From: Muribaculaceae bacterium
GTDB taxonomy: Bacteria > Bacteroidota > Bacteroidia > Bacteroidales > Muribaculaceae
Length of the DNA: 64,000 nt
Direction of reading: 5' to 3'
Assembly (NCBI GenBank): GCA_017427945.1
Contig: JAFRRT010000021.1
Coordinates: 2,259 to 66,258 of the forward strand
Shown in pieces: positions 1-13,949 of this stretch. Both the position numbers and the translations under genes were made by a program. Position 1 is the stretch's first letter. Each line of letters opens with the position of its first letter. The notes under the pieces were generated by a model that was given only the letters and a program-made list of their open reading frames with translations, was not told the DNA's origin and ran no database searches.

Positions 1-324
1 CGCATGCTCACCGCACGCGAGGTGCTCATGGACTTCGGCGCTTGCCAGAACGACCTGATGACCTACACCATGCCGCAGATTGCCATCATTAACGAGGGCA
101 TCTACCAGGTGCTGGAGCTAGGCGTTGACCGGAAAGCCGTGGACGTCGTGGGACGCAACCTGGTGCGCTACATCCAGTGGATGTTGGGTAACGGTCGCCA
201 AGAGGCCATCGCCCACTTCGCCTCATTCTTTGAAAACGCCACCTACCCCAATGCCAACGCCTTCATCATGATGGACTGCCGCGAGGCACTGACGCTCATT
301 AACCAGATGATCAACGACCTATGA
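1..324 (+). CDS. C-terminal fragment of a protein truncated by the window edge; probably the AAA+ ATPase partner of the downstream DUF2201/vWA protein
   Basis: Open frame from base 1 to TGA at 322-324, overlapping the next ATG (ATGA). The function is inferred only from the usual ATPase + DUF2201-vWA pairing; no motif is visible in the fragment. Confidence 0.5.
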   Translation, partial: RMLTAREVLMDFGACQNDLMTYTMPQIAIINEGIYQVLELGVDRKAVDVVGRNLVRYIQWMLGNGRQEAIAHFASFFENATYPNANAFIMMDCREALTLINQMINDL

Positions 325-1508
325 CCGTAGGCGAGCGCATAAAAGCCATCTCTCAGGACTGGTTCCTCACCGAGCCGCTCATGTTTGCCGTGCTGTGTAC
401 CCATGCGCTGAAGCGCAACGACAACATGGGGTGCGACATGCGCTGCGGCAAGGGACTCATCGAGTACAACCCCGAGCGGTTGGAGCATTTCGATGACAAC
501 CAGCTGGGGCTCAGGCTCAAGGCCGAGGTGCTGCGCATCATCCTCAAGCATCCCTACCAGCGACAACCCTACAACCCGCGTCGCGATGTGATGCGCCTGT
601 CGAGTGACCTCACCTTGTGTGACAACCTAGAGGGCATGGACACCGTGGGGCTGGAGCCGCCAAGCATCTTCAACGTTCCCAGGGACCAGGCCTTTGAGCA
701 GTACTACTCGCTCATGGCAGGGCAAATCATGCAGATTGAGCAGGATGCCGATGGCGAAGGTATCCCCATGGATATGGGCGGTGAAGGCAATGGCGAGGGT
801 AACGGTGACCTGACCGATAGCCTGCTGGATGCCGATGCAGGAGCCTCGTTGTGGGAAGAGGACGAACTGATGAGCGAGAAGGTTAATCACGAGATTGAGA
901 CGGCCCAACGCTGCAACCAGTGGGGTTCGTTGAGCGGAGACCTGCGTACCCTCATCGAAAGCACCTTGATCAGCAAGCAGAACTTCCGCGCCATCCTCAG
1001 CCAGTTTCGTGCGAGCATCCTGAGCACCAAGCGCCACCTCACACGCATGCGCCCCAACCGCCGCTATGGCTTTGACGCCATGGGCAGCCAGTATGCCTAT
1101 AGCACTCGACTGCTCGTCGCCGTTGACGTGAGCGGCAGCGTCCCCGACGAGGACATCAAGAAATTCCTTGCCGTCATCAACCGCTTCTTCAAGCAGGGCA
1201 TCGAACAAATTGAGGTCATCGAGTTTGACAGCAAAATCACGACCGAAAAGCCCGTCCTGCTCAAGCAAGCCACCAACAACATCCGCGTCACAGGCCGTGG
1301 CGGCACCGACTTCCAGCCCGCCATCGACTTCTATTACGAGCACGAGGAATATGACGGACTGGTGTTCCTCACCGACGGCTATGCCCCCACACCCAAACTG
1401 CCCGACGACAAGCGCCACAAGCCCCTGGCTTGGATATTGACCACCAACGGTGGCAATGAGGACAACCTCAAGCCCTTCGGCCCGATAGTACGCATCGCCG
1501 GACTGTAA
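321..1508 (+). CDS. DUF2201-type putative metallopeptidase-like N-domain + C-terminal vWA-like domain protein
   Basis: vWA MIDAS motif AVDVSGS, plus GRGGTDF and LVFLTDGY. Acidic/Gly linker. The N-domain has AEVLR where HExxH would be expected. Confidence 0.85.
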   Translation: MTVGERIKAISQDWFLTEPLMFAVLCTHALKRNDNMGCDMRCGKGLIEYNPERLEHFDDNQLGLRLKAEVLRIILKHPYQRQPYNPRRDVMRLSSDLTLCDNLEGMDTVGLEPPSIFNVPRDQAFEQYYSLMAGQIMQIEQDADGEGIPMDMGGEGNGEGNGDLTDSLLDADAGASLWEEDELMSEKVNHEIETAQRCNQWGSLSGDLRTLIESTLISKQNFRAILSQFRASILSTKRHLTRMRPNRRYGFDAMGSQYAYSTRLLVAVDVSGSVPDEDIKKFLAVINRFFKQGIEQIEVIEFDSKITTEKPVLLKQATNNIRVTGRGGTDFQPAIDFYYEHEEYDGLVFLTDGYAPTPKLPDDKRHKPLAWILTTNGGNEDNLKPFGPIVRIAGL

Positions 1509-1539
1509 TCCACCCTGCCGTTTTTCCCTTAATTGTATC

Positions 1540-1592
1540 ACCCCCCTTGGAGAACTCGGAGGTCGCAGAGAACTCAGAGCACTCCAAGGGGG
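1540..1592 (+). terminator. Stem-loop after the DUF2201/vWA gene
   Basis: CCCCCCTTGGAG ... CTCCAAGGGGG inverted repeat enclosing GAGAACTC repeats. Confidence 0.5.
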
Positions 1593-1604
1593 TTACTGTC
1601 TAAT

Positions 1605-1632
1605 GCCTAAAACCTAACGCCTAAAGCCTATA
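1605..1632. repeat. Heptamer tandem array (GCCTAAA ACCTAAC GCCTAAA GCCTATA)
   Basis: Read directly from the sequence; 7-bp periodicity. Confidence 0.7.
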
Positions 1633-1691
1633 ATAAAGGCAAATAAATGTGAAAACTTCGTCTCTTTTTTTGTCCTGTCCGAAACTTGCAC

Positions 1692-1699
1692 TATTTTTG
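1692..1699 (+). promoter_or_regulatory. Bacteroidetes sigma-A -7 box (TATTTTTG) upstream of the tubulin/actin cluster
   Basis: Matches the TAnnTTTG consensus in an AT-rich intergenic region, 45 bp before the ATG at 1744. Confidence 0.6.
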
Positions 1700-1743
1700 C
1701 AGTATATATAATATAATTTGTATTATTCGCAGTTTAAGAAAGA

Positions 1744-3201
1744 ATGAATCACAGAAATATCAGACGATTAGTCACCCTGCTGCTGGGAGCATCTTTCCTG
1801 GCATGTTTATGTGCGTGCGGCGGTCACGGCCAGTTGGAAAAAGCCGTGAGGTCGGCGCTGGTGAGGGGCGACACGACACAGGCAGTCTATGACTCCCTGT
1901 GCTCGATTGTTACCGACAACCCCGGGAAATACAGCGACCTTGTCACGCCCGAGGGCAAGTTGGACCACAAGAAAATGTCAGAATACATCGCTGACTTGGG
2001 CTCGCACCTGCGTCCGCCCATTTATTGGGACACCCGTCGCTATGGCGGTGTCGAGAACCTGTCGCTGACCATCTATTTTGAGCGCAGCGGCTCGATGGTT
2101 CCTTATGACCAGCGTGGCGGAGGCGGCCAGCTGAAGAAGGCCGTTAACGACCTGATTAACCACTTCCCTGCCGGGAGCAAGGTGGACATCAACATCGTGA
2201 ACGACGGCATCTACCCCTACCAGCACACCGTTGACGAGTTCCTGAAAGACCGTGACATCTACCAGAGCACAGCGGGTATCGGCGATGCCAGCTATACCGA
2301 CTTCCAGCTGATTTTCAACAAGATTCTGGAAGCACAACGCCCCGGCAACGTGAGTGTGCTGGTGAGCGACATGATTTATTCGCCCGAAGACACCCACGGC
2401 GTGAGTCTGGACAAGATTTTCAACGAAGAGAACAGCCTCGCTACCCGCGTATTTGCCCGCTACAAGGGCAAGAGCGTGGTGGTGCAGCAGTTCATGGGCG
2501 ACTATAGCGGCAAATATTATCCCTATAACGGCGTGCCGTTCAACTACAGCGGTAAGCGCCCGTTCTATCTGGTGATTATCGCCGACAGCGAGGTGATGGA
2601 CCAGTTGGCCCAGGACAAGCGCTACAGTGGTGTACTCGACGCACCGGGTATCAGAAACAGCTATCGCTTTAACCAAGTCACGAGCGAGGTGCCTTGCCGT
2701 GTGCTTCCCGAATGGAAAGACAACGCAGGACGCTTCCGTGTGAAACACGGCGACGACATTGTGTTGACCAAGTGCCAGGGCGACCGCCAGACCGGCAAGC
2801 TGTGTTTCTCGATGGCTGCCGATCTGAGCGGCCTGATGGCCAATGACGCGTTGCTGACCAATGCCGACAACTATGACGTGCAGAGCATCGACGGTTACAC
2901 CCTTGTGATTAACCCCGTCGATAAGAGCATGTTCACGGCCAACAACAAGGAGTACCTCGAAGGGATGACCCACGTGCTCACGCTCACTGGAGACTTCAAG
3001 AGCCCGCGCGACGAGGTGCGCATCTCGCTGCGCAACAACCTGCCCGACTGGGTTCGCCAGTCCTCAAGCGACAACGACACCCAGGCCGATGGCTCGTTTG
3101 CCACAACGACCTTGGGCCTGGAGCAGCTGTTAGGTGGCATGTTTGACGCGATGAAGGGCGGCAGCAGCTACTTTGACGTGACCATCAACCTACAACGATA
3201 A
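1744..3201 (+). CDS. Lipoprotein with a vWA-like domain
   Basis: Signal peptide with lipobox-like LCAC-GG. IYFERSGSM resembles MIDAS DxSxS with E in place of D, and VLVSDM is the downstream MIDAS-type Asp strand. Confidence 0.7.
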   Translation: MNHRNIRRLVTLLLGASFLACLCACGGHGQLEKAVRSALVRGDTTQAVYDSLCSIVTDNPGKYSDLVTPEGKLDHKKMSEYIADLGSHLRPPIYWDTRRYGGVENLSLTIYFERSGSMVPYDQRGGGGQLKKAVNDLINHFPAGSKVDINIVNDGIYPYQHTVDEFLKDRDIYQSTAGIGDASYTDFQLIFNKILEAQRPGNVSVLVSDMIYSPEDTHGVSLDKIFNEENSLATRVFARYKGKSVVVQQFMGDYSGKYYPYNGVPFNYSGKRPFYLVIIADSEVMDQLAQDKRYSGVLDAPGIRNSYRFNQVTSEVPCRVLPEWKDNAGRFRVKHGDDIVLTKCQGDRQTGKLCFSMAADLSGLMANDALLTNADNYDVQSIDGYTLVINPVDKSMFTANNKEYLEGMTHVLTLTGDFKSPRDEVRISLRNNLPDWVRQSSSDNDTQADGSFATTTLGLEQLLGGMFDAMKGGSSYFDVTINLQR

Positions 3202-3280
3202 TAAATTAGTAGTTAGGAGTTGTTTGATTATCCAACTCGATGACTAAAAACTAGGGATTAGAAAATAGAAACTGAACGAT

Positions 3281-3736
3281 ATGAAACATCTGGTATATTT
3301 AATTATTGGCATCGCGCTGACCGTGCTGTTCTTCATCCTGAGCTGCACCGACGGCTTCAACATCTGGGAGCAGATGTTCTTCAACCAGGGCTACAACGAC
3401 AAGATGTTCAGCCTGGACATGTATCCCGTGATTGCCGCCATCACCATCCTCGTGGCTTGGGGTGGCGCCGCCATCTATTATTACGCCATCAACTCGGTGA
3501 AGTTCGACCGCTGGTACCATTGGCTTGCCGTCATGGGCGTTGTCGTAGTGCTGGCTCCCGTGGTGTGCTACATTTACAACGACACCGTATTTGCCAACAA
3601 CGGTCTGATGTACGTCGGCGAGTCCATCAAGTTTGAGATGCAGACGGTACTGTTTGCAGCACTGCTCTATATCGTCGCCTCCTACTCGATGCGCTGGTGG
3701 AGCAGCAACTGCCGCCACACCCCGCTGCCCCAGTAA
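3281..3736 (+). CDS. Small multi-pass membrane protein (hypothetical)
   Basis: 151 aa with about 4 hydrophobic segments, co-directional within the cluster. Confidence 0.75.
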   Translation: MKHLVYLIIGIALTVLFFILSCTDGFNIWEQMFFNQGYNDKMFSLDMYPVIAAITILVAWGGAAIYYYAINSVKFDRWYHWLAVMGVVVVLAPVVCYIYNDTVFANNGLMYVGESIKFEMQTVLFAALLYIVASYSMRWWSSNCRHTPLPQ

Positions 3737-3745
3737 ACAAGTCAA

Positions 3746-3772
3746 GTGTGTCGTGGCGCTGCCACGACATAC
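3746..3772 (+). other. Intra-operon stem-loop without a U-tract
   Basis: GTGTGTCGTGGC-GCT-GCCACGACATAC forms a 12-bp stem (one G-U pair). Confidence 0.6.
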
Positions 3773-3807
3773 ACAACAACAATCAGATAAACAACTAAGA
3801 ACCAAAT

Positions 3808-5331
3808 ATGAGACTTTTCTTATTTGCTATTGGCGGAACCGGCTCGAGGGTACTGAAGTCCCTGCTGATGTTATCGGCAGCGGGCGCCAGGCCCCTTGAC
3901 GAGAACGGCAAGCCGCTGAAAGACCTTGAGATTGTGCCTGTCATCATTGACCCCCACAAGGCCAACGAGGACCTGAAGCGCACCGAGGCGCTGCTGAACG
4001 ATTACCGCGAAATCAGGCAGAAGCTATACGGCAACGACCCCAACGCTGAGGGATTCTTTGCCAACCGCATTGTCACCCTGCGCGAGATCATGAGCAACAC
4101 AAGTGTGACGCTTGGCGACACGTTCATCTTCAACCTGGGTGCTGTAGAGAACAGCAAGTTCCGTGAGTTCATCGGCTTTGACACGATGAACGAGGCCAAC
4201 CAGGCGCTGACGTCGCTGCTGTTTGCCAACTACCAGTTGGAGAACAAAATGAACATCGGCTTCGTGGGCAGTCCCAACATCGGTAGCGTAGCGCTGAACG
4301 AAATCAAGGACAGCAATGAGTTCAAGGCCTTCAGCAATATCTTCCGCCAGGGAGACCGCATCTTCTTCATCAGTTCCATCTTTGGTGGCACCGGTGCAGC
4401 AGGTTTCCCCATCATGGTGAAGAACATTCGCCAAGCCGCCAACCTAGAAGGCATCGAGAACCGCGACGCCTTGAGCCGTGCGCCCATCGGCGGCCTGACG
4501 GTGCTCCCCTATTTCACCCTCGAAGGCAACAAGCATGACCAGCGCATCGCCACCAGCGACTTCATCGTCAAGACACAGAGTGCGCTGTACTACTATAAGA
4601 ATACGCTCACGGGTGCCAACGACAGCAATGTCAACAGCATCTACTACCTGGGCGACCAGGTGAGGTCGAAGCCCTACCTGTATGACCCGGGAGAGCACGG
4701 CCAGCGCAACAACGCCCACCTCATTGAGCTGATTGGCGCATTGGCACCTCTAGACTTCCTCGGCATGCCTGAGAGCAAACTCACCGACCCCGACGGTTTC
4801 CCGCTGCCCACAACGGCCTATGAGTATGCCCTGGCCAGCGATGAGCTGTCAGTCAACTTCCTGACACTGGGTCGTCGCACCCGCCAACTCATCTATGAGC
4901 CCCTGAGCAAGTTCCACCTGCTGTTCCTGTTCCTGACCACAGGTTTCAAGAACATTATCGGACAAGGTTTCACAGAGGATGTGCCGAAGATCAAGAGCGA
5001 CTTCCTGGCTTCACAGTTCTACCGCACACTGGTTGACCACTTCATGGAAGGTTATGCCCAATGGCTCACCGAGATGAACGACAACATGCGCAGCGTGGCG
5101 CTGTTCAAACCCGGCGAAATCGACATGTCGCATGCCATCGAGGGTGTGAACGTGCGCAAGCGCATGCTCGGCCACTACAAGGTGGACAATGACGTCCTCA
5201 AGAGCGAGATGAACCGCCTGAGCAAGAACAACCCGAGCTACAGCGACCGCTCGGTGGAATTTAAGTTGCTGGACCTGTTCAACCAGGCTGCCCACAACGT
5301 GTTCATCGAACGCTACGAGAATATTAATTAG
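3808..5331 (+). CDS. Divergent FtsZ/tubulin-superfamily protein (tubulin-like GTPase; not cell-division FtsZ)
   Basis: N-terminal AIGGTGSRV (T1 loop), GFVGSPNIG (T3-like) and SSIFGGTGAAG (T4 tubulin-signature-like), followed by GLTVLPYF. 507 aa, with no FtsZ C-terminal peptide. Confidence 0.85.
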   Translation: MRLFLFAIGGTGSRVLKSLLMLSAAGARPLDENGKPLKDLEIVPVIIDPHKANEDLKRTEALLNDYREIRQKLYGNDPNAEGFFANRIVTLREIMSNTSVTLGDTFIFNLGAVENSKFREFIGFDTMNEANQALTSLLFANYQLENKMNIGFVGSPNIGSVALNEIKDSNEFKAFSNIFRQGDRIFFISSIFGGTGAAGFPIMVKNIRQAANLEGIENRDALSRAPIGGLTVLPYFTLEGNKHDQRIATSDFIVKTQSALYYYKNTLTGANDSNVNSIYYLGDQVRSKPYLYDPGEHGQRNNAHLIELIGALAPLDFLGMPESKLTDPDGFPLPTTAYEYALASDELSVNFLTLGRRTRQLIYEPLSKFHLLFLFLTTGFKNIIGQGFTEDVPKIKSDFLASQFYRTLVDHFMEGYAQWLTEMNDNMRSVALFKPGEIDMSHAIEGVNVRKRMLGHYKVDNDVLKSEMNRLSKNNPSYSDRSVEFKLLDLFNQAAHNVFIERYENIN

Positions 5332-5363
5332 GCTTTAGATATCAGACTATAATATCATCAACA

Positions 5364-8300
5364 ATGAGCGAGATATTATCCTATAACAACAGCACGTCGA
5401 AGAACGGCGAAGAGGACTGGATTGCACATGCCCCTTACAGCGATGACGACATCGCGCGCATCAAGGATCCCGATGGTGGCTTGAGCGAGAACCCGCGCAC
5501 CGCCATTCCCAGCCCATTGGCTCAACTCGACCTGGTGAAGAACGCCTTCAAGCAGCTGGCCAACGACCACCTGCGCGGTGCACGCATGAACGAGCGCCTA
5601 GTCTCCAATGCGCTCGACGTGGCACAATTGTTCTTTGACTACGAGAACCATAAAGACTACCTGCGCATCATCAGGTGGAACCGCGAGGAATGCATCGAGC
5701 AGTTAAAGTCCAATCCGCAGCACCGCCTCTACGGCGAGACGTTGGACCTGTTCCTGCGCAGCGACAAGGTCTATAACTTTGACCTGCTGAAGGACTGGTA
5801 CATCATCATGTGGGACCGCAAGGTGCTGGGCGGAACATCTCCGGCATCGGTTGTGATGGCGGCTCCTGCCGTTGGCGTCATCGACGACATCAAAGTGGAG
5901 CAAGGCGTAAGCCTGTTCAGCGAGACACGGCACCTGTGGCAGCGCGACGAGGACTTCGTCTTCTACATGTACCTGCTGATGAATGCCTACCCCACGCTGA
6001 GGTTGCATTGCGGCGAGGTTTATGCCTATATGCAGAAGAACCTCGAGCCGTTGCGCGCCAACCGTCCCGAACTATATAGCCGCCTGACCACCGTCATTCC
6101 CAACCTTGACGCCCTCGACGAAGGACGTGCCAGCACGGTGCTGGAGCAGTTGGAACACAACTATGACCCGTTTGGTGGCGGCATCGACGTGAGTGTGCTT
6201 GGCGCACGCTTCTACCACAAGCGCGCCCTCGACATCCAGTCGGCAGCCAGTGAAAGCGACTTTGTCATCGCTCCCACCATGCCCCAGACCAAGAAGGAAT
6301 TGCCGCTGGCCCTGGTCAACGGCTTCAACGGCAGCGTGGAGCACTTCCGCTACATCGACAAGGAATGGGACAGCGCCACCCAGGTATATGCCAACGGCCA
6401 ACCCTTGAGCGAGCGCAAGCTGCCCGATACCTCGATACAATATCCGTTTGTCACCACCAACGATTTCTTGACCGACACCATCGTCAGGTTGGACAGCGGG
6501 TGCGTCATCGATACCGACCACTTCTTTGACGGCAACCTCAAGCCGCGCACGCCGCAGCCCACCTGCGGCTATCTGCTGCCCTTGAAACCGTTGCTGTTCA
6601 CCTACTTTGACACCGCCTACCTAAAAGGCACCGTCGCCGGCCGCCACGTGATTGACATCGAGGAGTTTGCCGACGGCAGCGTGATGGTCACCCTGCGCAT
6701 CAGGGTGAAGAAAGGCGAGAACCGCTACATCGAGATGTCCCGCAAGTACTTCCCCATCAACGACCACACCTGGTCGTTTGACGAGCGGCGCGGAACAGGC
6801 CGTGTGGTAGGGACCACCCTTTCGACCTCGATATTCCCGTTTGTCAAGACCGACGCCAACGACGACTATACCGTCGAACTGTTCACGATGATTGAGAACG
6901 GCGGAGCCACACTGCGCTTCTACAAGGATGGCATGAAGACCGAAGGGTTGAACGTCAGGGACGCTGACCGTTCACACTCGGGCTACAGCACGACCTACTA
7001 CGATGTGGACGGCTCGTTTGACTATATCGACGTCAGCGTAATGAACCACTTGGGACGCTTTGGAGGTATGATTATCCCGCAATGGAAACCTTACAACCCG
7101 AGCGCCAAGGAATTGATATTTGCTGTGGACTTCGGCACGACCAATACCCACGTAGAGTGGGCCGAGCGAGGCCAGCCTTCACAGCCTTTCACCTTTGAAT
7201 ACGGCTCCAATCAAGTGCTTGTAGCTTCGTTGCACAAGCCCCGCTCGCTGGAGTATGCCGAGCAGGTTCAGCGCGTGGAATTTGTGCCGCGCGAGATTGA
7301 CAACGTCTATGGTTTCCCGCTGCGCTCCACCCTGGCGCGCAACGAGAACAGCGGCGTGGGCAGCAACCTGTTCAGCGACGTGAACATCCCGTTCCTGTAT
7401 GAGCGCCGCTATTTCCACGGCTATGAGGTGACCACCAACCTGAAGTGGAAAGGCGATACCGAGCTGGCAAAAGCCTTCCTGCGTGAGCTCACCCTGCTCA
7501 TCAAGGCCAAAGCCCTGCTTGAAAATGCCGACCTGCGACGCACCGAAATCGTATACTTCTATCCCGTAAGCATGGGCGGCGCTGACCGCGACACGCTGGA
7601 GCGCACATGGAGTGAACTGTTCAACACCTACATTGGTGCCGACAGCGACCGCCTGCGTTCCTACCCCGAGAGCCTCGCTCCCGCCTATTACTACAGCGGA
7701 GCTGAGGTAGCAGGCAGCAGCTATGTGTCTATCGACATCGGCGGCGGCACCTGCGACACGGTAATTTATCAGCCCACGAGCGACAGAATGAGCAGTGAGC
7801 CTGTGGCCATCTCCTCATTCCGCTTTGCCGGCAACGCCATCTTTGGTGACGGCTTTACCGACAAGGATGCCGACAACAACCCGTTGCTGCAGCACTATAC
7901 GCGCTACTTCAAGCAGCTCATCGAGAATGACAAGGGCAACAACATCGCTTACCTGGGCAGCATTCTGAACGACATCATGGCCCAGAAGCGCAGCGAGGAC
8001 ATCAATGCCTTCCTGTTCTCGATTGAGAATGTCGAGGAGCTGCGCTCGCTGCGTGAAATTGACCGCAACCTGTACAGCTACAATGCCCTGTTGCGTAACG
8101 ACAGCCAGCGGCGCCTCATCTTCATGTACTTCTACACGGCCATCATCTATTACATCGCCATGGCGATGAAGCAGCGTGGCTACGAGATGCCCAAGCAGAT
8201 TTACTTCTCGGGCACCGGCAGCAAGATTCTGAACATCCTAGGCTCACACAGCCGCATCAACATGCTCACACAGACCATCATCGAGCGTGTCTTTGACAAG

Positions 8301-8807
8301 CAATACACCGAGCTGTTTGAAATCAAGCAGGAGAACCAGTGTCCCAAGCAAATCACCTGCCGCGGTGGTATCAAACTCGAGAACAGGCGCCTTGAAGGTC
8401 AAGCCGATGTCAGCCGCTACAATGCCACTAGCGTGAAGCGCATGCGCTACTGCTGCTCGATGGTAGGCGAGGACGACCTGACGATGGCCCAAGTGGAATC
8501 TATCGAAGTGCGTGACCGCCTTGTTGAGCAAGTCAAGGTATTCAACCAATTCTTTGTCAACCTGTGTGATGCGGTTGTCAAGGATGAGTTCGGCATCGAG
8601 AACAACGTGCTGAGGCTCTTCGAGAGCGTGCTGAGCGACAACCTCGCCAACTACCTCACGGCTGGCATCAACACGTTCCTGAAAGGCCGATACAATGCCA
8701 ACGACGTGATTGAGGATGTGCCGTTCTTCTACCCGATTATCGGTGTCATCCGCCACAATCTGCTCAAGAACATGCGCAACGACATCATCAGCAAGTTTAA
8801 CCAATAA
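5364..8807 (+). CDS. Large protein with a C-terminal actin/Hsp70-fold ATPase domain (SrfB-like architecture)
   Basis: AVDFGTTNTH (phosphate 1), YPESLAP (connect 1), SIDIGGGTCD (phosphate 2) and YFSGTGSK (adenosine motif). The ~580-aa N-terminal region is unassigned. Confidence 0.8.
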   Translation: MSEILSYNNSTSKNGEEDWIAHAPYSDDDIARIKDPDGGLSENPRTAIPSPLAQLDLVKNAFKQLANDHLRGARMNERLVSNALDVAQLFFDYENHKDYLRIIRWNREECIEQLKSNPQHRLYGETLDLFLRSDKVYNFDLLKDWYIIMWDRKVLGGTSPASVVMAAPAVGVIDDIKVEQGVSLFSETRHLWQRDEDFVFYMYLLMNAYPTLRLHCGEVYAYMQKNLEPLRANRPELYSRLTTVIPNLDALDEGRASTVLEQLEHNYDPFGGGIDVSVLGARFYHKRALDIQSAASESDFVIAPTMPQTKKELPLALVNGFNGSVEHFRYIDKEWDSATQVYANGQPLSERKLPDTSIQYPFVTTNDFLTDTIVRLDSGCVIDTDHFFDGNLKPRTPQPTCGYLLPLKPLLFTYFDTAYLKGTVAGRHVIDIEEFADGSVMVTLRIRVKKGENRYIEMSRKYFPINDHTWSFDERRGTGRVVGTTLSTSIFPFVKTDANDDYTVELFTMIENGGATLRFYKDGMKTEGLNVRDADRSHSGYSTTYYDVDGSFDYIDVSVMNHLGRFGGMIIPQWKPYNPSAKELIFAVDFGTTNTHVEWAERGQPSQPFTFEYGSNQVLVASLHKPRSLEYAEQVQRVEFVPREIDNVYGFPLRSTLARNENSGVGSNLFSDVNIPFLYERRYFHGYEVTTNLKWKGDTELAKAFLRELTLLIKAKALLENADLRRTEIVYFYPVSMGGADRDTLERTWSELFNTYIGADSDRLRSYPESLAPAYYYSGAEVAGSSYVSIDIGGGTCDTVIYQPTSDRMSSEPVAISSFRFAGNAIFGDGFTDKDADNNPLLQHYTRYFKQLIENDKGNNIAYLGSILNDIMAQKRSEDINAFLFSIENVEELRSLREIDRNLYSYNALLRNDSQRRLIFMYFYTAIIYYIAMAMKQRGYEMPKQIYFSGTGSKILNILGSHSRINMLTQTIIERVFDKQYTELFEIKQENQCPKQITCRGGIKLENRRLEGQADVSRYNATSVKRMRYCCSMVGEDDLTMAQVESIEVRDRLVEQVKVFNQFFVNLCDAVVKDEFGIENNVLRLFESVLSDNLANYLTAGINTFLKGRYNANDVIEDVPFFYPIIGVIRHNLLKNMRNDIISKFNQ

Positions 8808-8828
8808 TCATATCAATCTCAAGAAGTT

Positions 8829-10010
8829 ATGAAAAAGATTGCATTAACCTTGGCAGCCATCATCTGCCTCGCCACCTCGGCAATGGCGCAAATCTCCGAG
8901 AACCAGACCCTTTCCACCACATTGTGGAAGCAGGGTATCGCCACTTGTGCCCATTACACAGCCTATGCGCGCGGCTTTGGCAAGCGGGCCGAAGAGATCA
9001 AGTCCCAATATCCCCAAGGCTACACTATTGATGACCTGAACAATGGGGTGTACAGCAACCAAGGCAGGAAATGGGAGAAAATCTACAATGAGTTCAAGGA
9101 AGCCGAAGAGAAGAACGGAAGCATCAACGACCTGAAGGAACTCGTGACGCCGCAAATCTGGAAACTCGTTGAACCCGAGTTCCAGGCGTTCATCACCGAC
9201 CATCCTGAAGCATTGAAGGAAATGCCACCGCAACCGGCCGACGAACAAGCCGAAGCCGACGGTGAAGGCAATGCAAAGGATAATGCCACTGGCGAAGCTG
9301 CTCCCGCCAAGGCAAAGGCAGCCAAATCAGGCGCACCTGCCTGCTCGGCAAATCTGCCCCTGTGGCTGAGTATCATCGGCGCTCTGTTGGGCCTGTGGGC
9401 CCTGCTCACCGCCCTGAGCAACCGCGGCAAACTCAAAGAGATGCGCCGCAATTTCGCCCGTGAGTTGGAGCGCACCAACGCCAACTTGCAGGAGTTCTCG
9501 ACCGACGCCGCCGACCAGATGAAGGCGCTGTCAATCAGGCTGACCGGTAAGGCCATCCGCAAGGATGACAACTTCGAGGAGCCTGTCGTAGAAGACGAAC
9601 CCGTAGAGGGCGAGCCCGAGACGGAAGAAGCCGTTGAGGAAGAGCCCCAGATTGAAGAAGTCGTTGAACAGGCCGTTGAGGAACCGCGTGAGCCTATCAC
9701 CTTGTTCATGTCCAAGCCCGACGAGAACGACGATTTCACCCGCGTGAGCGACACCTTAGAGCCCGGCAACTCCCTCTATGTGCTGGACAGCAAGGACGGT
9801 GAACACGGAACCTTTGAGGTCATCGACAAGCCCGAAGTACACCGCATGGCATTGATGATGCCCACCGAGAACCTGATTCGTGCCTGCTCGGGCAACGCCA
9901 TCCAGATTCCCAGCGGCAACCGCATCGTTACCGACCGTCCCGGTGAGGCAGAATTCATCGACGGCAAATGGCACGTTGTAGTCAAGGCCATTATCCACTA
10001 CGAAGGATAA
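8829..10010 (+). CDS. Signal-peptide protein with an internal TM helix, coiled coil, acidic linker and C-terminal globular domain
   Basis: N-terminal signal sequence; TM LPLWLSIIGALLGLWALLTAL; helical segment KLKEMRRNFARELERTNANLQEF; E/V/P-rich linker. Confidence 0.75.
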   Translation: MKKIALTLAAIICLATSAMAQISENQTLSTTLWKQGIATCAHYTAYARGFGKRAEEIKSQYPQGYTIDDLNNGVYSNQGRKWEKIYNEFKEAEEKNGSINDLKELVTPQIWKLVEPEFQAFITDHPEALKEMPPQPADEQAEADGEGNAKDNATGEAAPAKAKAAKSGAPACSANLPLWLSIIGALLGLWALLTALSNRGKLKEMRRNFARELERTNANLQEFSTDAADQMKALSIRLTGKAIRKDDNFEEPVVEDEPVEGEPETEEAVEEEPQIEEVVEQAVEEPREPITLFMSKPDENDDFTRVSDTLEPGNSLYVLDSKDGEHGTFEVIDKPEVHRMALMMPTENLIRACSGNAIQIPSGNRIVTDRPGEAEFIDGKWHVVVKAIIHYEG

Positions 10011-10027
10011 ACCCTCAATGAGCTAAC

Positions 10028-10125
10028 AGTTAATAGTTAATAGAGAATAGTTGGCAGACTATAACCGTCAACGGGTTAAAGCAACCAACGAAAATCTATT
10101 AACTATTAACTATTCTCTATTAACT
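10028..10125. repeat. Palindromic heptamer element (GTTAATA/GAGAATA arms in inverted orientation)
   Basis: Left arm GTTAATA GTTAATA GAGAATA GTT; the right arm is a reverse-complement array CTATTAACTATTAACTATTCTCTATTAACT. Confidence 0.8.
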
Positions 10126-10133
10126 CAAAAAAC

Positions 10134-10577
10134 ATGCGCTGGACCTGTCCAAAATGCGGCAAAAAGTTGGAAATCAGCAACGAGCAACTCATCGCCAATG
10201 ATGGCGTGATTGTTTGCCCGCAGTGCTTGCTGCAGGCTCGCCAGCCCATTCCCACTGCCCGCGTCGCGGCAAAATATGACAAGGCCGATGCGGACACCAC
10301 ACCCCCAAAACGCACCAAAAACAGTACCCCTCCCCCACACAAGCCCCGCATGAAACAGGCCAAAACGTCCTACCGCTACACCGGCCTCAGTGGCGACAAC
10401 AACAGAGCCACACGTCCATCTACCAAGAAGAAAAGCACCAAAAAGAAATCCAAGAAGAAAAAAGGCAAGGATGAAGGCATGAGCCCGTTGGGCTGCCTGG
10501 GCCGCACCATCATTTTCACGCTGGTGCTGTTCGCCGTTTATGTCTTCTTCGGCCTGTTGCTCGAATCCTTTCAATAA
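10134..10577 (+). CDS. Zinc-ribbon (MJ0042-like) protein with a Lys-rich linker and C-terminal TM helix
   Basis: CPKC...CPQC at the N-terminus; hydrophobic C-terminus. Confidence 0.75.
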   Translation: MRWTCPKCGKKLEISNEQLIANDGVIVCPQCLLQARQPIPTARVAAKYDKADADTTPPKRTKNSTPPPHKPRMKQAKTSYRYTGLSGDNNRATRPSTKKKSTKKKSKKKKGKDEGMSPLGCLGRTIIFTLVLFAVYVFFGLLLESFQ

Positions 10578-10660
10578 CCCCCGCCAAAGCGCCTCCCCGT
10601 TCTTAAAAACAGATAACACAATTTAAGGATATTTCGTGCAGGAATATCGTGCAAAAAGTG

Positions 10661-10668
10661 TAACTTTG
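10661..10668 (+). promoter_or_regulatory. -7 box TAACTTTG
   Basis: TAnnTTTG consensus upstream of the DUF4491 gene. Confidence 0.55.
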
Positions 10669-10727
10669 CAGGACATTTTCGGTCAAGCCACAAAACGGCC
10701 TTGACACGCGGCAAATTTCATGGAGAG

Positions 10728-11072
10728 ATGGCGGATTTTCTCTCGACATATCATTTACAGGGTCTGGTGTTGGGCCTGTGCTCATTCCTGATCATCGGCA
10801 TCTGCCACCCCATCGTCATCAAGGGGGAGTACCATTTTGGACAACGGTTCAAGTGGTTTTTCCTTATTGCAGGTGTGTTGTTGTGCATCGGTTCGCTGAT
10901 GGTCAACAGCGTGATGTTGTCTGCACTGATGGGCGTGGGTGCATTCTCGTGCTTCTGGGGCATCAAGGAGATGGCCGAGCAGCAGGAGCGCGTGCGCAAG
11001 GGCTGGTTTCCCCGCAACCCCAAGCGCACCTACCCTTGGGATGAGAAAGCCGACAAGAAAGACAACGAATAA
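10728..11072 (+). CDS. DUF4491-family membrane protein
   Basis: GLCSFLIIGICHPIVIKGEYHFG and EQQERVRKGWFPRNPKR motifs. ATG 10728 preferred to TTG 10701. Confidence 0.85.
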   Translation: MADFLSTYHLQGLVLGLCSFLIIGICHPIVIKGEYHFGQRFKWFFLIAGVLLCIGSLMVNSVMLSALMGVGAFSCFWGIKEMAEQQERVRKGWFPRNPKRTYPWDEKADKKDNE

Positions 11073-11078
11073 TCGATT

Positions 11079-12908
11079 GTGAAGACGGTGAAGGCGATAA
11101 CCTTGACAACAGTCATGCTTGTGCTGCTTGGCACGGCGATGAGTGCGGCTCACAATGTGAGCGGCACCATTACCTGTGACGGACAGGGTGTCGCCGGTGT
11201 GCCCGTGAGCGACGGTTATGAGGTGGTCCTTACCGATGCCAATGGCCATTATGAGATGACCAGCGGCAAGTACAACGGTTATGTGTTCTACACGCTGCCC
11301 GGCGGTTACGAGCCGATGCTTGCCGATGGCTTCAATCCGCAATTCTGGGCACCGCTCGATTCACATGACGTCAATGTGAGCGAGACACATGATTTTGAAC
11401 TGCGCCGTGTGGACAATGACCACCACATCATGGTCTTCGGTGCCGACACGCATCTGGCACGCCGCATCACCGACCGCGCCTTTTTCAAGAAAGGTTTCCT
11501 CGCCAGCATGAACGAGGAGGTAGAACAAGCGGGCGACCTGCCCATCTATTCCACACTGCTGGGCGACCTCACCTGGGACGTGTTCTGGACCCAGAACGAT
11601 TATGACCTACACGATTTCATGGCCGACATGAAAACATGGAACTATCCCATGACGCTGTGGCCCGTTATCGGTAACCACGACCACGACCCCAGCGTGCCTG
11701 CCGGCTCTACCACCGACTTTGACGCCGCCCAGGCATGGCGCGACATCGTTTGCCCGAATTACTACAGTTTCAACTTGGGCAAGATTCATTATGTCGTCCT
11801 TGATGACATTAATTACCTGAACGAGGCGATACCCGGCGAAAACTACTCCGAGGGTGTCGTCGGCAGCCGCAACTACCGCGGAGTCATCGCTGATTATCAA
11901 CTCAACTGGCTGCGTAAGGATTTGGCGCAAGTGGAGCACAATGTTCCTCTGGTCGTGTGCATACACATCCCCGCTTGGTCAGTCACCTCCCAGTTCGGCT
12001 ATTACTCGCGACTGGACAACACCTACGCGCTGTGTTCCATTCTCAGGCATTATGACAACGTCCACATCGTGAGCGGCCACACCCACGGCAACTATACCGT
12101 GCGCACCTCAGGCTATCCCAACATCACCGAGCATAACATCGCCGCTGTGTGCGGCACGCTGTGGTGGAGCGCGTCAGTGTCAGGCCACAACGTTTGCCAT
12201 GACGGCAGCCCCGCGGGTTATTCACTGTGGGAAGCCGATGGCGACAACCTACGCTGGACGTACAAGGCCACAGGAAACGGCAATGACCAGATGCGCTTGT
12301 ATGACATGAACACCGTGCGCAACTTTTATCGCACCAACAGCACGATATCTGCTCTCTTGAACGAATATCCCTCGCGGGTGGATTTCTCGACGATTGACGA
12401 CAACTTGGTCATGGTAAATGTGTTTGCCTATGACAACGACTGGCAGATAAGCATCTGCGAGGGCGACAGCCTGCTGGGTTGCCAACGTGTTTGCACCGAA
12501 GACCCCTTCCACACCATTGCCCTTGACGTGCCGCGATGGGATGCCGTAGGCTACTTTTCATCAGACTATGCCACAAGCCGTAACACCCACATGTTCGAGG
12601 CCCAGGCCGTGACAGCGACCGAGCCCATCACGGTGCGCGTCATCGACAGATTCGGCAACATTCATCTGCGTTCCATCTCCAGGCCGCACACCTACAGTGC
12701 CAGCATGGAAAAGCAGGAGACCAAATTAACTGCCGGCGACGTGAATGCCGACAGGGAGATAAACATTACCGACGTGAACGCCATCATCAACATGATTACC
12801 ACCGGTAAACGGAAGGGTTATGTGCCCGTCCTCATCGACTGCAATGCCGACAACGAAGTGAACATTGCTGATGTGAACAAAATCATTGACACAATCATAA
12901 CACAATAA
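11079..12908 (+). CDS. Secreted calcineurin-like metallophosphoesterase with a C-terminal dockerin-like domain
   Basis: Motifs [19 protein letters not shown] and SGHTH. C-terminal [15 protein letters not shown] / [14 protein letters not shown]. Confidence 0.85.
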
Positions 12909-13640: not shown

Positions 13641-13949
13641 ATGGCAGCATTAAAATTTCAACGTCCCAAGTGGATACCTCGGTGGCTCAACATACCGTTG
13701 CTCATTTTTGTGGGCTTTGTAGTGGTATTGTTGTTCTTTGGTGACAACAACTACATGCGCATCAGCAAATACCGCTCTCAAATCAATGAGCTCAAGAGCC
13801 AAATCAAGAACAACCAGGACTCGGCAGCAATGTATGAGACCAAAATCAACGAACTGAACACCGACAACGAGACGCTGGAACGCCTGGTCCGTGAGAAATA
13901 CGGCATGAAGCGTACCAACGAGGAGGTTTACATCACCGACATCCCCTGA
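13641..13949 (+). CDS. Septum formation initiator (FtsB/DivIC family)
   Basis: TM helix + coiled coil + LERLVREKYGMKR motif. Confidence 0.85.
   Translation: MAALKFQRPKWIPRWLNIPLLIFVGFVVVLLFFGDNNYMRISKYRSQINELKSQIKNNQDSAAMYETKINELNTDNETLERLVREKYGMKRTNEEVYITDIP

Follow-up and report, generated by a model that had tools for sequence, protein, structure and literature searches.

What kind of machine is encoded where the gene for a divergent tubulin-like GTP-binding protein lies beside that for a giant Hsp70-like ATPase, in one row with genes for a lipoprotein and for membrane proteins? The question is raised by a gene cluster at 1744-10577 of a 64,000-nucleotide stretch (contig C15:2259-66258; the window, meaning that whole stretch) from a Muribaculaceae genome of 2.77 Mb, labelled G000. 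Here we report that the genes for the lipoprotein, the small transmembrane protein, the tubulin-like protein and the Hsp70-like protein form an invariant ordered core. With a confidence that stands level with our doubt, we read the cluster as an inner-membrane-anchored, envelope-spanning, nucleotide-gated conflict system built on two nucleoside triphosphatases (NTPases), acting in defence against phages or mobile elements or in envelope surveillance.

An earlier note on this DNA had described a five-gene operon, and the positions of the open reading frames (ORFs) agree with it: g1 to g5 all lie on the + strand and are separated by gaps of 79, 71, 32 and 21 nucleotides (nt), in that order. Together with a probable sixth gene they are (lengths in amino acids, aa):

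1744-3201, + strand: g1, 485 aa, lipoprotein with an invariant ExSxS...D motif resembling a metal-ion-dependent adhesion site (MIDAS)
3281-3736, + strand: g2, 151 aa, integral membrane protein with four hydrophobic segments
3808-5331, + strand: g3, 507 aa, divergent GTP-binding protein of the tubulin/FtsZ superfamily, as predicted
5364-8807, + strand: g4, 1147 aa, predicted Hsp70-type nucleotide-binding domain behind a novel N-half
8829-10010, + strand: g5, 393 aa, bitopic membrane protein
10134-10577, + strand: d1, 147 aa, Zn-ribbon protein with a C-terminal transmembrane anchor; probable sixth gene

Searches of g1-g5 against Pfam, NCBIfam and PADLOC gave nothing above threshold, and phmmer and profile searches against PDB sequences gave no significant match, so that g3 and g4 were resolved by structure prediction alone. 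The AlphaFold2 model of g3 (predicted local distance difference test, pLDDT, 84; predicted template modelling score, pTM, 0.88) was compared with the PDB by Foldseek, and the top 50 matches were all FtsZ, TubZ, CetZ or tubulins (probability ~0.75-1.0, E from 2e-3, low TM-scores of 0.2-0.37). The sequence carries a T1 motif GGTGSR, a GFxGxPNxG motif, a T4 motif SSIFGGTGAAGFP and a T5-like LPYF; G9-G10-T11-G12 of T1 and S190-I-F-G193-G-T-G196-A-A-G199 of T4 are invariant over 26 g3 sequences with identity down to 30%. No T7 synergy loop (NxDxxD/E after an H7-like helix) is conserved in the alignment, the C-terminal part (356-502) is helical in the model, unlike the FtsZ/tubulin C-domain, and no long coiled coil was seen in the model. 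The Pfam models Tubulin and Tubulin_2 score below threshold (E ~0.03), with 13.5 bits against a gathering cut-off of 27 for Tubulin_2 (PF13809; E 0.043), and weak or faint precomputed Tubulin_2 matches exist for some g3 orthologues. The tubulin/FtsZ fold that had been suggested from the sequence is thus borne out by AlphaFold2 and Foldseek, and the model gives g3 a GTP-binding fold of the tubulin/FtsZ kind, its T1 and T4 motifs being intact.

The AlphaFold2 model of g4 (pLDDT 82) begins with a conserved disordered N-terminal peptide (~35-62), after which residues ~50-580 make up an alpha/beta domain and a beta-sandwich; an Hsp70-type nucleotide-binding domain (NBD; ~585-1010) and a helical tail (1016-1147) come next. 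Its top 50 PDB matches in Foldseek are all Hsp70/DnaK NBDs (E 2.7e-9 and up, probability 1.0), viral Hsp70s also being among the structural matches. For this reason g4 is best described as Hsp70-like and not actin/MreB-like: of the actin/Hsp70 fold proposed in the earlier note, it is the Hsp70 side that is borne out. With Hsp70/DnaK the domain shares the fold, the DxGTTNS and DxGGGTxD motifs and the glycine-rich adenosine loop (in g4 DFGTTN, DIGGGT and SGTGS); D589-F-G-T-x-N594, D791-I-G-G-G-T796 and G950-x-G952-S953 are invariant in 25 g4 sequences with identity down to 25%. According to the model, then, g4 carries an Hsp70-type ATPase domain whose phosphate-1, phosphate-2 and adenosine motifs are intact. 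It differs from the Hsp70 chaperones (DnaK/HscA/HscC) in that no substrate-binding beta-sandwich or lid follows the NBD; the beta-sandwich of g4 precedes it, and a helical tail of ~130 aa alone lies behind. A novel region of 580 residues stands ahead of the domain, and these residues (1-580) are without fold or sequence match, every Foldseek match falling on the NBD. Library scans of the cluster proteins found no J-domain (DnaJ) or GrpE protein. Clustered at 50% identity, the g4 family numbers 2753 clusters at a threshold of E<=1e-3 and 1021 at E<=1e-30; its named members are all 'hypothetical' except for one automatic UniRef label (Ppx/GppA).

A profile of g4 recovered 80 related loci. The order g1-g5 is kept in 65 of them, far beyond chance, and 11 of the remaining 15 are cut by contig ends, so the genes do form the conserved unit that had been supposed. 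The core g1-g2-g3-g4 is retained across classes of Bacteroidota at identities down to ~25%. In the divergent loci (g4 ~20-36% identical), which belong to other clades of the Muribaculaceae, to further families and to a different class, the order lipoprotein, small transmembrane protein, tubulin-like protein, Hsp70-like protein recurs wherever a full cluster is visible, and g1 homologues always take the first place. The ordered core is present in 21 such full-cluster loci (L089-L092, L098-L113 and L118, the last from Runella), in six of which one slot was called by position, size and transmembrane content and not by hidden Markov model (HMM): the g2 slot in four, the g1 slot in L111 and L112. 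The locus of Prevotella sp. oral taxon 299 (L114) also keeps the g1-g4 order, and L093 ends inside g4 at a contig end.

Within this core, g3 and g4 are neighbours in every locus examined, and in L104 they are fused into a single ORF of 1596 aa (8105-12892), with the g3 HMM matching residues 3-497 and the g4 HMM residues 524-1436. By the Rosetta-stone argument the fusion suggests that the two proteins cooperate physically, and on these sequence grounds the idea of a tubulin-type and an Hsp70/actin-fold NTPase acting together gains support.

The spread of the family is patchy. Carriers of g4 make up 7 of 401 genomes sampled phylum-wide (1.7%), 39 of 201 genomes and 18 of 35 genera within the family, and 10 of 10 genomes in the genus of the window. 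Genomes hold up to three divergent copies of the cluster; the window genome has a single copy of each cluster gene. Named carriers include Runella, Spirosoma oryzicola, Fibrisoma, Dyadobacter, Mucilaginibacter sp. 21P, Dysgonomonas sp. 520 and Prevotella sp. oral taxon 299 F0039, and all recovered relatives with a genus- or phylum-level name are Bacteroidota. Carriage on mobile elements was considered and rejected: g3 had no phage match, the neighbourhoods inspected held no integrases, and g4 matched a single 'plasmid', which is a Prevotella's second replicon of 1.77 Mb. One genus-mate contains a second full cluster (L098, G498:C14:73525-80127) with tandem g4 paralogues of 1223 and 909 aa, the shorter with two in-frame TAA codons; g4 of two other genus-mates (G474:C45 and G446:C37) has one in-frame TAA each. 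These stops could reflect pseudogenisation or assembly errors.

Downstream of the core the clades vary. That of the window has g5 and the Zn-ribbon gene; in Prevotella sp. oral taxon 299, too, the g5-like gene is succeeded by one for a Zn-ribbon protein. In eight divergent loci the core is followed by a pair encoding a MotA-like protein (~540 aa) whose helical tail is long and a MotB/OmpA-like protein (~215 aa), which match the PADLOC models of ZorA (E 1e-7) and ZorB (E 8.6e-14); L106 has the MotA-like (ZorA-like) gene alone. Lipoprotein trypsin-like proteases occur among relatives in at least four architectures, and further modules found elsewhere include a retropepsin-like protease, a Zn-ribbon-PrsW protease, an SNase nuclease, a YkuD transpeptidase and proteins with tetratricopeptide repeats (TPR) or an outer-membrane protein (OMP) barrel, such as the TPR and OMP beta-barrel gene after the core of L092. 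In one distant branch a g3-like gene precedes a gene for a g4-like protein that bears a TIR domain at its N-terminus, and TIR-FGE-sulfatase and TIR genes come after these.

Conflict genes are also nested inside the cluster. The g3-g4 spacer, normally 10-75 nt, holds co-directional cargo in 7 of the 65 loci where both genes could be placed (a raw count). The cargo is of at least five kinds: a HaeIII-type restriction-modification (R-M) pair; a D12 methylase with AlwI; a YhcG/DUF1016 nuclease (PADLOC candidate PDC-S02); a PDDEXK_3 cassette; and a gene set with a weakly KAP/AAA-like ATPase. RHS toxin cassettes lie within two clusters: in L037, a locus that does not include g3, upstream of g4, and in L062 downstream of it.

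Some of these insertions have features of their own. The PDDEXK_3 ('GxxExxY') cassettes, ~0.5 kb long, sit in the g3-g4 spacer at L012:9527-9988, L024:9522-9950 and L032:9526-9825 and in the g2-g3 spacer at L043:7955-8368 and L048:6213-6638; that of L012 is bordered by the inverted repeats CGCTAAGACGCAAAGGCGCTAAG ... CTTAGCGCCTTTGCGCCTTCGCG, and they may represent a class of mobile cassettes that targets intergenic hairpins. In L062 (13452-22937) a full-length g4 is followed by a cassette of ~8 kb encoding a protein with a tail of the type IX secretion system (T9SS), a 1060-aa protein and a DUF6443-RHS toxin, and then by a second copy of the g4 C-terminus, 432 aa long, with a short g5-like ORF (147 aa) after it. 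Since the g4 C-terminus is repeated behind the cassette, the insertion appears to have brought a partial duplication of its target. A few kb downstream of the cluster, an HSDR_N-domain protein is encoded in Runella (L118:19841-20911) and Mucilaginibacter (L123:16442-19277); in the latter it is followed by a PfkB-nucleoside deoxyribosyltransferase fusion and an adenylosuccinate-synthetase-like gene, and in Runella a faint Nuc_deoxyrib_tr gene lies close to it. These genes may form a separate, nucleotide-targeting conflict module.

The remaining proteins of the window cluster are a lipoprotein and membrane proteins. In g1 the lipobox Cys25 is invariant, as are E113, S115, S117, M118 and D209, and E113-x-S115-x-S117...D209 resembles a MIDAS (DxSxS plus a downstream Asp). 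No von Willebrand factor A (vWA) profile was found for g1 in Pfam or PDB searches; hhalign comparisons with BatA and BatB of the window were not significant, that with BatB placing ExSxS on DxSxS at a probability of 0.3%. A vWA fold is possible at the level of the motif, and g1 is probably periplasmic. An acidic surface-export motif after the lipidated cysteine is known from surface lipoproteins of Bacteroidota, and g1 lacks it; Cys25 of g1 is followed by GGHGQLEK, with the first acidic residue at +7, so the 'outer-facing' orientation given to this lipoprotein in the earlier note finds no support. In keeping with the earlier description, g2 shows by eye four hydrophobic segments; its final ~25 residues are ~97% conserved. 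The earlier description of g5 as a membrane-anchored coiled-coil protein also agrees with its layout by eye: a signal peptide and a variable periplasmic domain, then one transmembrane segment (~176-196) leading to a cytoplasmic coiled coil, after which come an acidic linker and ~100 aa of conserved C-terminal domain. Identity is 47-57% in its N-terminal domain, 21% in the linkers and 63-81% in the last 100 residues. In d1 a basic low-complexity linker joins an N-terminal Zn-ribbon to a C-terminal transmembrane anchor. Evolution is fastest in d1 and in the periplasmic part of g5, and slowest in g3 and g4. With periplasmic, membrane and cytoplasmic parts all present, the cluster has a trans-envelope make-up.

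Two further elements bear on the limits of the unit:

1692-1699, + strand: -7 promoter box of the Bacteroidetes type, TATTTTTG (TAnnTTTG), 45 nt upstream of the g1 start codon
10019-10127, no strand: inverted repeat in the g5-d1 spacer, with heptamer arrays GTTAATA/GAGAATA

Both had been noted before and were found again. The box is the sole + strand TAnnTTTG between g1 and its upstream gene, and the only other + strand copies in 1500-10700 are at 5774, within g4, and at 10661, upstream of a DUF4491 gene; d1 has no -7 box of its own. Because d1 trails g5 in 62 of the 80 loci and lacks such a box, the unit probably consists of six genes, g1-g5 and d1, and the five-gene boundary drawn earlier finds no support. 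A scan for intrinsic terminators found terminator-like sites within the cluster not above chance. Promoter-like matches of the sigma-70 type numbered 13 against 4.9 +/- 2.3 in shuffles, a consensus that is uninformative for Bacteroidota.

The inverted repeat (arms 10019-10050 and 10096-10127; perfect 18-nt core 10035-10052 and 10108-10125) forms a long hairpin with a folding energy of -35.7 kcal/mol. In L002-L046 a strong hairpin, of -27 to -64 kcal/mol, is present in ~35 of the 41 g5-d1 spacers listed. These hairpins are inverted arrays of short repeats, mostly 7-mers, whose alphabets differ by locus (GTTAATA/GAGAATA, TTAGGAG/TGAGAAG, TTAGGCT/TTAGGTT, CAGTTAA/CAGTGAA, TTAGCTG), so that structure and position are kept while the sequence turns over. 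Possible roles are those of an attenuator, an RNA-stability element or a mobile palindrome.

Upstream, a MoxR AAA+ gene (C15:1506-2579) and a DUF2201 VWA/metallopeptidase gene (window 321-1508) were tried as members and rejected, their homologues adjoining the cluster in none of the 80 related loci. A second moxR-bat operon lies in the window at ~36.5-45 kb. The ORF at 11079-12908 encodes a calcineurin-like metallophosphoesterase of 609 aa whose C-terminus bears a Dockerin_1 domain (scoring above the cut-off with 25.2 bits, E 1.9e-5), which is unusual in Bacteroidota. FtsB/DivIC is encoded at 13641 of the window, and a normal division cluster is kept elsewhere in the genome.

The earlier note had left it between a cytomotive membrane-remodelling apparatus and a conflict system; the comparative evidence leans towards the latter. 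A conflict system is favoured because a fixed NTPase core is joined to interchangeable sensor and effector modules and has TIR/FGE-sulfatase neighbours, and because patchy spread with paralogues goes together with fast-evolving periplasmic parts and nested defence genes. Variable accessory modules are typical of conflict systems, and there is an echo, by analogy, of the tubulin and HSP70 themes of published ones (PMC7159879).

In the mechanism that we envisage, the periplasmic parts (the MIDAS-like site of g1 and the fast-evolving N-domain of g5) would sense an envelope event. The membrane proteins g2, g5 and d1 would keep the cytoplasmic g3/g4 pair at the membrane, the conserved C-domain of g5 being the likely docking site. 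GTP-bound g3 would self-assemble, and g4 would bind to it, perhaps by its conserved disordered N-terminal peptide, ATP turnover by g4 then gating, remodelling or disassembling the g3 assembly. We infer these steps, from sensing through assembly to gating, and for the output of the window's short version our guess is growth arrest or a perturbed membrane. Coupled in sister clades to a ZorAB-like proton motor, periplasmic trypsin-like proteases or TIR domains, the core would have these as its transducer and effectors. More tentatively, and with doubt prevailing, the core might represent a prokaryotic class of immune or surveillance systems, new and widespread, in which a tubulin-like polymer serves as a signal-amplifying switch gated by a dedicated Hsp70-like ATPase, with pluggable sensors and effectors (a ZorAB-like motor, periplasmic proteases, TIR NADases or, here, a minimal bitopic sensor and a Zn-ribbon anchor).

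Several observations weigh against a conflict system. The window's version contains no recognisable effector (nuclease, TIR, protease or pore-former), and PADLOC models match none of its proteins (in PADLOC-DB v2, g1-g5 hit no family at E<=1 and d1 hit none at E<=0.001). Sequences of g3 and g4 have ~80% mean identity over 70 aligned sequences. The cluster is universal in the genus and occupies a fixed site beside housekeeping genes (trmD and DUF4491; MutS and POR in relatives), with no integrase or classical defence island near it in the neighbourhoods inspected, which looks more like the vertical inheritance of a cellular function. The ZorA and ZorB matches are modest and could denote generic stators of the MotAB/ExbBD/TolQR type; the window genome has no ZorAB-like pair, its lone weak match, on another contig, being generic. 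The TIR branch is very distant (24% identity) and without g1 and g2, the nested R-M and nuclease cassettes may merely mark a permissive co-transcribed spacer, and the periplasmic proteases, L,D-transpeptidase and OmpA-like domains suit envelope maintenance equally well.

Much of this is what would be expected of the alternative that survives best, a non-immune cellular machine in which a membrane-tethered tubulin-like polymer, controlled by the Hsp70-like ATPase, remodels or maintains the envelope. Possible roles are outer-membrane vesicle formation, quality control of peptidoglycan or lipoproteins, and local membrane shaping; the machine would parallel FtsZ-FtsA and, in the stator-bearing relatives, Tol-Pal. 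The fixed, genus-wide locus, the strong conservation of g3 and g4 and the lack of an effector in the window all fit such a role, as do the accessory genes of relatives, which act on the envelope (OmpA/MotB-like peptidoglycan binders, HtrA-like trypsin-like proteases, YkuD, TPR and OMP beta-barrel proteins), and membrane remodelling has been proposed for FtsZ-like/vWA operons (PMC2875224). It is a serious rival, which we nevertheless hold to be the less likely: the very patchy spread, over 1.7% of the phylum sample and 18 of the 35 family genera, with divergent paralogues in one genome, speaks against it, as do the TIR fusions and TIR-FGE-sulfatase neighbours of one branch, the swapping of downstream modules between clades, and the R-M, nuclease and RHS cassettes nested in the cluster.

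Divergent operons of tubulin-like, vWA and membrane proteins were predicted in 2010 and recast as conflict systems in 2020. We know of no experimental tests of them so far. The present family is large (>1000 clusters at 50% identity) and common in gut and rumen Bacteroidales, and because named organisms carry it (for example Prevotella, Dysgonomonas, Spirosoma, Mucilaginibacter, Runella and Dyadobacter), the question is within experimental reach. Should the cluster be a conflict system, it would embody a defence principle missed by current catalogues, a cytoskeletal GTPase with an Hsp70-like ATPase at the envelope, and would also explain a Zorya-like motor with new partners. Were the core an immune class, a tubulin-Hsp70 pair would for the first time be the basis of a defence system, and FtsZ-like operons unexplained since 2010 would gain their first experimental handle; were it an envelope machine, it would be a second tubulin/ASKHA machine besides FtsZ-FtsA in Bacteroidota. 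Either outcome is relevant to research on the bacterial cytoskeleton, phage defence and the Bacteroidota envelope.

Does the cluster belong to a predicted system that has already been described, namely the FtsZl1-vWA-GTPase-OmpA operons or the GAP1-N2/DO-GTPase conflict systems? We consider this improbable. FtsZl1 (Makarova & Koonin 2010, Biol Direct 5:33, PMC2875224) consists of an FtsZ-like domain at the N-terminus, a long coiled coil and an alpha-helical C-domain, ~900-1100 aa in all, and its operon partners are a vWA protein (COG2304), a diverged P-loop GTPase and an OmpA-like protein. The likeness to g3 lies in a divergent tubulin/FtsZ GTP-binding domain with T1 and T4 and no recognisable T7 loop or C-domain, and the weak score of g3 on Tubulin_2, which is the FtsZl1 model, points the same way, as do the precomputed matches of some orthologues. 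Both families are patchily spread and lie in operons with membrane proteins and with a vWA-type partner, a possible one here, since the lipoprotein with the MIDAS-like motif stands at that partner's position. Membership in FtsZl1 is ruled out by length, coiled coil, operon partners and Tubulin_2 score: g3, at 507 aa, is half as long as FtsZl1 (~1000 aa), has no coiled coil and stays under the Tubulin_2 threshold, and the window operon is without P-loop GTPase, COG2304 vWA protein or OmpA-like protein, OmpA/MotB-like proteins occurring in sister clades only. The constant partner here is a giant Hsp70-like ATPase, not described in PMC2875224. The neighbours at the published Bacteroides FtsZl1 loci differ as well, including those at the Bacteroides caccae locus of PMC2875224, so the placement with FtsZl1/FtsZl2 in the earlier note finds no support.

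The GAP1-N2/DO-GTPase systems (Kaur, Burroughs, Iyer and Aravind 2020, eLife 9:e52696, PMC7159879) are centred on a TRAFAC GTPase and GAP1. They resemble the present family in combining NTPases of the tubulin and HSP70 superfamilies, predicted to multimerise, with vWA-type and membrane proteins, and in their modular, lineage-specific accessory genes, TIR and FGE-sulfatase appearing in the distant branch of our family. Their tubulin and HSP70 themes, in contrast, do not overlap and are confined to, or found mainly in, Firmicutes and Actinobacteria, and their HSP70 is canonical and accompanied by GrpE or DnaJ (PMC7159879), whereas g4 has 1147 aa and a novel N-half. TRAFAC GTPase and GAP1 are both absent from the window cluster: a Walker A motif (GxxxxGK[ST]) occurs in none of the six proteins g1-g5 and d1, which also lack Pfam GTPase matches, and the defining GTPase is therefore missing. 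The g4 family is named in none of the papers searched, and no published description of the g3-g4 pair was found in that literature. The family is thus unnamed and outside the PADLOC catalogue, the pair is undescribed in the literature found, and the suggestion of an undescribed system stands.

Very improbable is an apparatus for secreting, assembling or sorting a cell-surface product, with an Hsp70-like chaperone and a tubulin-like scaffold: membrane proteins and a lipoprotein do accompany an Hsp70-type ATPase here, joined in relatives by stator units (the stators ExbBD, TolQR and GldLM power transport in other systems), and an OMP beta-barrel and TPR gene stands behind the core in L092, but a conserved cargo gene is absent, the core has no secretin, ABC or T9SS component as a conserved companion, the Hsp70 substrate-binding domain is missing from g4, and the TIR and R-M associations would be left without explanation.

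Two known systems offer parallels to the conflict reading and to the envelope machine. Zorya is an anti-phage system that combines a proton-driven ZorAB motor with ZorC/D/E effectors. In the window cluster and genome the ZorAB-like pair is missing, homologues of ZorC, ZorD and ZorE were not seen, and the ZorA matches of the sister clades are weak (E ~1e-7); in those clades, however, the ZorA/ZorB-matching pair directly follows the same four-gene core, and an envelope sensor coupled to a cytoplasmic response is implied in both systems. FtsZ-FtsA is a tubulin-fold polymer held to the membrane by an adjacent actin-fold ATPase. The ASKHA domain of g4 differs in being Hsp70-like and not FtsA/actin-like, the gene order is reversed, and g3 lacks the C-domain and T7 loop of the polymerisation-coupled hydrolysis of canonical FtsZ. 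In both systems a tubulin-fold GTPase and an ASKHA-fold ATPase are encoded side by side and work at the inner membrane, as predicted for g3 and g4, and one partner has a conserved disordered peptide that is a plausible docking element.

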